Below, piece by piece: positions 40,585 to 41,040 of a stretch of DNA of 64,000 nucleotides. Made by a program: the position numbers and the translations under genes. The notes under the pieces were generated by a model, which saw only the letters and a list, made by a program, of their open reading frames with translations, had not been told where the DNA came from and ran no database searches. How positions within the stretch are numbered: position 1 is the stretch's first letter; every line of letters starts with the position of its first letter. Origin of the DNA: Escherichia phage vB_EcoM_SA21RB; sequence record OL960580; one strand, 5' to 3'.

Positions 40585-41040
40585 TTATTTTAAATCATCT
40601 GCCCAATCGAGTTTAAGAGGCTCTTTGTATTCACGGTCGAGTACGACCGGAATTTGTACATCACCGCTAAATGATAAGGGCCCAACATTATAAGACAATG
40701 TTATATGCGGCGTGTAATCATCAAAATCATGTGTAGCACCTAGTGCCCGCGCATACATGTGTCGACAGCGCAGATATTCAGAATCTAGTACAAGTACAAG
40801 AGTCGATCCATCTTGTGTTTTCCATACTTCTAAATGTCCAGAAGAAGCTACTTCAAAACTTCCGCTTGATGGAACATACGGAACATTTACTCTTGAATAA
40901 CATATGGTCGAATGAATTTTTTCTCTAGGAACTGGATTAGGAACACGTAAAGAGCGCTGGAGTTCTTCCAGCGCATCAAGTGTTAATTCTGAAAACTTAG
41001 CTGCTACATAAAGACCCGTTGAAAAGTCTTTAAATTCCAT
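40585..41040 (-). CDS. 57B: 2H phosphoesterase (57B; anti-CBASS nuclease Acb1 in T4)
   Basis: 151 aa; two H-x-T/S-x motifs (HSTI and HITL) of the 2H phosphoesterase fold; position next to 57A and gene 1. Confidence 0.75.

Follow-up and report, generated by a model that had tools for sequence, protein, structure and literature searches.

The open reading frame at 40585–41040 on the minus strand of Escherichia phage vB_EcoM_SA21RB (record OL960580; positions refer to the 64,000-nucleotide stretch analysed here, called the window below) is almost certainly an intact, wild-type acb1 gene of a T4-like phage (Tequatrovirus). Judged from its sequence, it would encode the 2H phosphoesterase Acb1, which is the product of gene 57B in T4. 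A preliminary description of this DNA had placed a 151-aa open reading frame here and had labelled the finding as known biology. The coordinates and the length were right, as was the label; the strand, which was absent from that description, is minus. The function of acb1 is indeed already known, and no novel reading of acb1 itself survives. The gene, its two catalytic motifs and its immediate neighbours are as follows.

40585–41040, minus strand: acb1 (T4 gene 57B) coding sequence, which starts with ATG, runs for 151 codons and ends in TAA, the stop being inside these coordinates.

40903–40914, minus strand: first catalytic motif, H43-S-T45-I (HSTI, residues 43–46), which is H44/T46 in T4 numbering, from the motif scan and alignment.

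40696–40707, minus strand: second catalytic motif, H112-I-T114-L (HITL, residues 112–115), which is H113/T115 in T4 numbering, from the motif scan and alignment.

41040–41282, minus strand: gene 57A (tail-fibre chaperone), with 98% identity (78/80) to T4 gp57A and a match to PF17594.

40225–40512, minus strand: ipI (internal protein I), the downstream neighbour of acb1, with 100% identity (95/95) to T4 IPI and a match of 180 bits to PF11634 (IPI_T4).

The protein was aligned with T4 gp57B (NP_049750.1), and all 151 residues were found to be identical (100%) to residues 2–152 of the T4 protein, in agreement with the earlier proposal that this is T4 57B. At the DNA level there are 10 nucleotide differences from the T4 gene, which fall in 9 codons; all are synonymous and none is nonsynonymous. 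Because random substitutions are mostly nonsynonymous, this divergence implies purifying selection in this minus-strand frame. With complete identity to T4 57B and only synonymous differences, the acb1 open reading frame is not a chance product. Two antisense open reading frames of 61 aa (40743–40928) and 47 aa (40757–40900) lie on the plus strand within acb1; we regard them as mechanical, given that the differences from T4, all of them synonymous, fit the frame on the minus strand. An Rfam scan of positions 36500–42200 at gathering thresholds matched 11 tRNAs alone, none of them overlapping acb1 on either strand.

The genomic context is also that of T4. In the annotated T4 genome (NC_000866), gene 3, gene 1 (dNMP kinase), 57A, 57B, ipI, trna.4, trna.3, trna.2 and the tRNA genes follow each other on one strand, and the window has the same order; the run from gene 1 through 57A and 57B to ipI bears out the assignment of the gene to the 57B position. 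The 237-aa open reading frame beyond 57A is the dNMP kinase of gene 1 (PF21448, 347 bits). The order gene 3, gene 1, 57A, acb1 is kept more widely among the Straboviridae genomes examined, namely in Krischvirus, Lazarusvirus, Pseudotevenvirus and Bragavirus. The window gene thus shares with T4 acb1 the same 151-residue sequence, the same neighbours (gene 1 and 57A upstream, ipI downstream), the same strand, the catalytic tetrad and the ligand contacts. It differs in the 10 synonymous changes, in encoding a product of 151 rather than 152 residues, and in overlapping 57A by 1 nt rather than 4 nt.

The protein matches the Pfam family Acb1 (PF23474) at 202.7 bits (cutoff 27, E = 2.6e-60), with residues 8–149 aligned to positions 1–144 of the 144-position profile. 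The best match in the PDB is Acb1 of Erwinia phage FBB1 (7T26/7T27, E = 4.1e-62), where residues 8–148 align with residues 1–142 of the 144-residue chain, and 96 of 141 residues (68%) are identical to 7T26_A. At 68% identity to 142/144 residues of this chain, the window protein is predicted to adopt the same compact 2H phosphoesterase fold with a C-terminal lid. It would share with FBB1 Acb1 (7T26 is the apo form and 7T27 the complex with 3'3'-cGAMP) the 2H fold, the HxT/HxT tetrad and a lid carrying a conserved Trp. FBB1 Acb1 differs by a one-residue indel after position ~80, by an HTT in place of HST in the first motif, and by coming from a phage of another host genus.

The two H-x-T/S motifs that had been picked out from the letters, HSTI and HITL, are both present, and the protein has no other H-x-[TS] match. 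Together with the Pfam and PDB matches, their mapping onto the expected HxT/HxT residues upholds the classification as a 2H phosphoesterase. All nine published functional residues (taken from PMC9117128) are found at the T4 position minus 1: Y11, H43, T45, W73, F106, H112, T114, E140 and W146. This set includes the five ligand-contact residues, which in T4 numbering are the base-stacking aromatics Y12, W74, F107 and W147 and the adenine-reading E141. In an alignment of seven sequences, with homologues from Bragavirus, Krischvirus, Lazarusvirus and Pseudotevenvirus and a portal fusion from a Pseudomonas phage, H43, T45, H112 and T114 are invariant, with the identities of the homologues ranging from 61% to 27%.

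The wider 2H superfamily (LigT or 2'-5' RNA ligase, CPDase) shares the two H-x-T/S motifs and a metal-independent acid–base chemistry that proceeds via a 2',3'-cyclic phosphate (PMC9117128). The match to the Pfam family of the LigT type, PF13563 (2_5_RNA_ligase2), covers residues 80–122 alone and fails to reach the threshold, scoring 13 bits (E = 0.11) where the cutoff is 27, and the substrates of Acb1 are cyclic di- and trinucleotides rather than RNA ends. The relationship to PF13563 is, on these scores, at the superfamily level only.

Much is known about the T4 protein. Hobbs et al. 2022 (PMC9117128) found T4 57B (NP_049750.1), the founding anti-CBASS nuclease, as Acb1 by activity-guided fractionation, and so the statement in the preliminary description that 57B had been reported as Acb1 was accurate. 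A T4 mutant lacking acb1 grows normally without CBASS and has a replication defect of more than 300-fold on CBASS-positive hosts; H44 is catalytic, and the H44A/H113A protein is inactive (PMC9117128). Catalysis uses the tetrad H44, T46, H113 and T115, is metal-independent and takes place in two steps (PMC9117128). The FBB1 structures show the 2H phosphoesterase fold and the C-terminal lid, with Y12, W74, F107 and W147 stacked on the bases and E141 making an adenine-specific contact (PMC9117128). The enzyme leaves cA4 uncut, and likewise the 2'-5' bond of 3'2'-cGAMP (PMC9117128). In an independent transposon screen, 57B/acb1 was dispensable on K-12, and on a host expressing CBASS it was depleted and thus conditionally essential (bioRxiv 10.1101/2025.11.20.689424).

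For the present phage, the enzymology and the anti-CBASS phenotype are transferred from the identical T4 protein, and on this analogy the following mechanism may be proposed. After infection, the metal-independent 151-aa Acb1 would destroy the cyclic di- and trinucleotide messengers made by the CBASS CD-NTases of the host. The four aromatic residues (T4 Y12, W74, F107 and W147) would stack on the bases and E141 would read the N6 of adenine, such that the strained ligand presents the 2'-OH of an adenosine for attack on the 3'-5' phosphodiester over H44/T46/H113/T115. The bond 3' of the adenosine would be cut via a 2',3'-cyclic phosphate intermediate, giving a linear product such as GpAp. With the signal gone, the CBASS effector would never be activated, and abortive infection would be averted.

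The strategy of removing a nucleotide messenger of the host is shared with Apyc1 (the anti-Pycsar MBL phosphodiesterase), with the poxins, and with the Acb2 sponge (vs.4 in T4). All of these are unrelated to Acb1 in fold and mechanism; Apyc1 is a Zn-dependent MBL enzyme, and in the case of Acb2 the signal is sequestered and not cleaved. T4 carries both acb1 and acb2 (bioRxiv 10.64898/2026.03.30.715471).

Homologues of acb1 are widespread. Among 50,697 phage records searched by megablast, 559 gave a match and all of the matches were full length; 7 were at 99% identity or above and 495 at 95–99%, nearly all of them in T4-like phages of Escherichia, Shigella and Yersinia. At a scale of 10 kb, the window is best matched by Tequatrovirus genomes of 96–98% identity. 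At the protein level, tblastn found homologues in 1,485 phage records, 498 of which are at least 99% identical and the others down to approximately 30%, in phages of Escherichia, Klebsiella, Acinetobacter, Vibrio and Aeromonas. The homologue of Citrobacter phage CfP1 (KX245890.1; 1459–2079 of the retrieved segment) is 207 aa long, with the Pfam match at residues 15–158 and an extension of ~50 aa past the C-terminal end of the Acb1 domain, which has no Pfam match. Most of the homologue records label the gene "hypothetical protein" or "RNA ligase", and few say "phosphodiesterase". In PHROGs the window protein belongs to phrog_755, which is named "RNA ligase", and T4 57B bears the same name in RefSeq.

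Were these names taken at face value, the acb1 product would be an RNA ligase, a LigT-like 2'-5' RNA ligase or an RNA-repair enzyme, and the HxT/HxT motifs that the 2H superfamily has in common with LigT, together with the weak match to PF13563, would fit such a role, in addition to the names used in many deposited records and in phrog_755. We consider this very improbable. A score of 13 bits for PF13563 stands against 202.7 bits for Acb1, the identical T4 protein has been characterised biochemically as a phosphodiesterase of cyclic oligonucleotides and has an anti-CBASS phenotype in vivo (PMC9117128), and the loss of that phenotype in a clean T4 acb1 deletion has already been reported. The label "RNA ligase" is misleading, since it is inherited from the name of the superfamily and not from a tested function, and the correct name, Acb1 or cyclic-oligonucleotide phosphodiesterase, is worth propagating in annotations. 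The proposal that the main role lies elsewhere, either in countering other cA3 signalling such as that of type III CRISPR or in the RNA metabolism of the phage, where the enzyme would be a general 2',3'-cyclic phosphodiesterase, is somewhat easier to entertain, and we still judge it unlikely. Acb1 does cleave cAAA, from which Hobbs et al. suggested that type III CRISPR systems relying on cA3 might be evaded (PMC9117128), and its degradation of cA3 in vivo is strong enough to trigger type II Panoptes (PMC13577387). Such activities extend the anti-CBASS explanation and do not exclude it. Moreover, the only loss-of-function phenotypes in vivo on record are against CBASS, and T4 without acb1 is normal where CBASS is missing. 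To our knowledge, E. coli hosts do not typically carry type III CRISPR, which also counts against this proposal.

Natural disruptions of acb1 do exist: Bas43 has a nonsense mutation in the gene, and escapers of Bas35 have a mutated acb1 (PMC13577387). The window copy could in principle be decayed in this way, as a pseudogene or as a gene disarmed to escape guard systems such as Panoptes. There is hardly any room for this alternative here, and it is already refuted at the level of sequence: the reading frame runs its full length, uninterrupted by a frameshift or an early stop codon, there are no amino-acid changes with respect to the active T4 Acb1, and the catalytic and ligand-contact residues are all intact. 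As far as can be judged from the letters, the sequence holds nothing against the Acb1 identification.

An active Acb1 in this phage has some predicted consequences, again by analogy with the identical T4 protein. The phage would be expected to resist CBASS signalling with molecules of the 3'3'-cGAMP, cUA or cAAA type, and it would be expected to be sensitive to guard systems triggered by depletion of the signal, that is Panoptes types I and II (PMC13577387). What the phage carries is an intact anti-CBASS nuclease adjoining an intact anti-GmrSD inhibitor, and there is little new biology in this.

The TAA stop of 57A overlaps the ATG of acb1 by one base (TAATG; 41038–41043, minus strand), whereas T4 has ATGATG with a TGA stop. 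The junction reads GAAGAATAATGGAA in the window and GAAGAATGATGGAA in T4. A single G-to-A change relative to T4 turns the 57A stop from TGA into TAA and the first ATG of T4 into ATA, which gives the product of 151 rather than 152 aa; it is the only local difference from T4 besides the synonymous changes. The second ATG is either sufficient for acb1 or its real start. Escherichia phage JLBYU31 is annotated with the same 151-aa arrangement.

No dedicated promoter for acb1 lies between 57A and acb1, where the genes overlap and leave no room for one. Given the TAATG overlap and the lack of a promoter of its own, acb1 most likely shares a transcript with 57A, with translational coupling between the two, and we infer that this would be in the middle/late period. 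A promoter and terminator scan of positions 39900–42200 found 10 sites compared with 8.5 in shuffled sequence, which is no excess. The individual elements that bear on expression, discussed below, are the following.

41638–41645, minus strand: TATAAATA, which is the late-promoter consensus of T4, within gene 1 and 356 nt upstream of where 57A starts; candidate.

40543–40571, minus strand: early-type sigma-70/T4 promoter-like site (TTTACA, 17 nt, TACTAT, with TG) in the 72-nt spacer between acb1 and ipI; a consensus match only.

40532–40563, minus strand: stem-loop of 14 bp just downstream of the acb1 stop, from folding of an 86-nt spacer segment.

The TATAAATA sequence at 41638–41645 is a candidate late promoter for the message carrying 57A and acb1. 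It is found at the same distance in T4 (6006–6013 of the retrieved T4 segment), and the number of such sequences in the window is not above chance, with 12 found and 10.8 expected. A late promoter at this place would agree with the expression of 57B, which has been reported as middle/late (bioRxiv 10.64898/2026.03.30.715471), and with the onset of the cleavage activity in infection at ~15 min (PMC9117128).

The promoter-like site at 40571–40543 would, from its position, drive ipI and not acb1. It is kept in T4, and such sites are no more numerous in the region than expected from shuffled sequence. The 86-nt spacer segment folds with −18.3 kcal/mol (z = −3.9), and one of 200 shuffles folds as well as this. 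The stem of the hairpin is conserved in T4, with a G-C pair there in place of the G-U of the window. The stem shares positions with the −10 hexamer of the promoter-like site, and the hairpin is complete solely in transcripts that read through from 57A and acb1. The predicted hairpin is possibly a 3' end or a stability element of these transcripts. As an intrinsic terminator it was rejected, as there is no U-tract after the stem and the terminator scan made no call.

Downstream of this spacer lies ipI. PF11634, the family that its product matches, is described as "Nuclease inhibitor from bacteriophage T4". IPI (Ip1) is injected and inhibits GmrSD, the type IV restriction enzyme of E. coli CT596, and Ip1, Ip2 and Ip3 each block a distinct GmrSD variant (PMC12373910). 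The complete identity of the adjoining ipI product to T4 IPI supports the view that the corner formed by 57B and ipI is a counter-defence locus, which has likewise been published before. The ipI slot is known to be polymorphic, and Bas37 has a different gene there, which inhibits McrBC (bioRxiv 10.1101/2025.11.20.689424). In JLBYU31 the slot holds two other "internal head protein" genes of 85 and 99 aa (4529–5096 of the retrieved segment), and the acb1 gene beside the swapped slot has 98.9% DNA identity to the window gene. As this comparison shows, genes are swapped at the ipI position, and acb1 is stable.

Beyond ipI, the genes trna.4, trna.3 and trna.2 and a 171-aa open reading frame match no Pfam family, and they belong only to PHROG families of unknown function. 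The 171-aa open reading frame (38773–39288, minus strand; phrog_2290) lies between trna.2 and the gene for tRNA-Gln and is also present in JLBYU31. T4 has no gene at this place, and its trna.2 is ~100 nt from tRNA-Gln. The 171-aa open reading frame is a variable accessory gene near the counter-defence corner. The trna.2 homologue is found at 39285–39578 on the minus strand. When the defence reverse transcriptase DRT1 was pulled down, only two phage proteins were enriched, one of them T4 Trna.2, which the authors did not follow up (PMC13275509); this is a hint that the trna.2 product interacts with a defence system.

One tentative reading of this region, which we think rather unlikely to be correct, is that the genes from acb1 through ipI, trna.4, trna.3 and trna.2 to the 171-aa open reading frame (~38773–41040, minus strand) form a multi-gene anti-defence island, in which the small genes also inhibit host defences. 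It is based on the early-type promoter-like sites at 40571–40543 and 40205–40177, on a gene content that differs from one close relative to another (JLBYU31 and Bas37 have other genes in the ipI slot, and T4 lacks the 171-aa open reading frame), on the lack of a Pfam family for any of trna.4, trna.3, trna.2 and the 171-aa open reading frame, and on the presence of T4 Trna.2 in the DRT1 pulldown (PMC13275509). New findings might come only from these uncharacterised neighbours and from a portal–Acb1 fusion described below.

The tRNA array at 37665–38686 (minus strand) contains 11 genes, for Arg, His, Asn, Tyr, Met(cat), Thr, Ser, Pro, Gly, Leu and Gln. The array of T4 has 8 genes and is interrupted by segB, a homing-endonuclease gene that the window array lacks. 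In JLBYU31 the array has 10 tRNAs, that for His being missing.

Outside the window, gp70 of Pseudomonas phage psageK9 (NC_074661.1; 52–1851 of the retrieved segment) is a 600-aa protein that combines a portal domain and an Acb1 domain. The portal domain (PF06381) occupies residues 38–385 with a score of 298.8 bits, and the C-terminal Acb1 domain (PF23474) occupies residues 457–598 with 148 bits. Both HxT motifs are intact (LHVTIAYSR and PHITFTY). The architecture suggests that gp70 may be a virion-borne anti-CBASS nuclease. Portal–Acb1 fusions are not mentioned in Hobbs et al. 2022 (PMC9117128), and a limited literature search gave nothing relevant to them. The window protein has a weak match (E = 0.062) to PDB entry 8hds, the portal protein of Pam3, which may reflect the same portal–Acb1 architecture.
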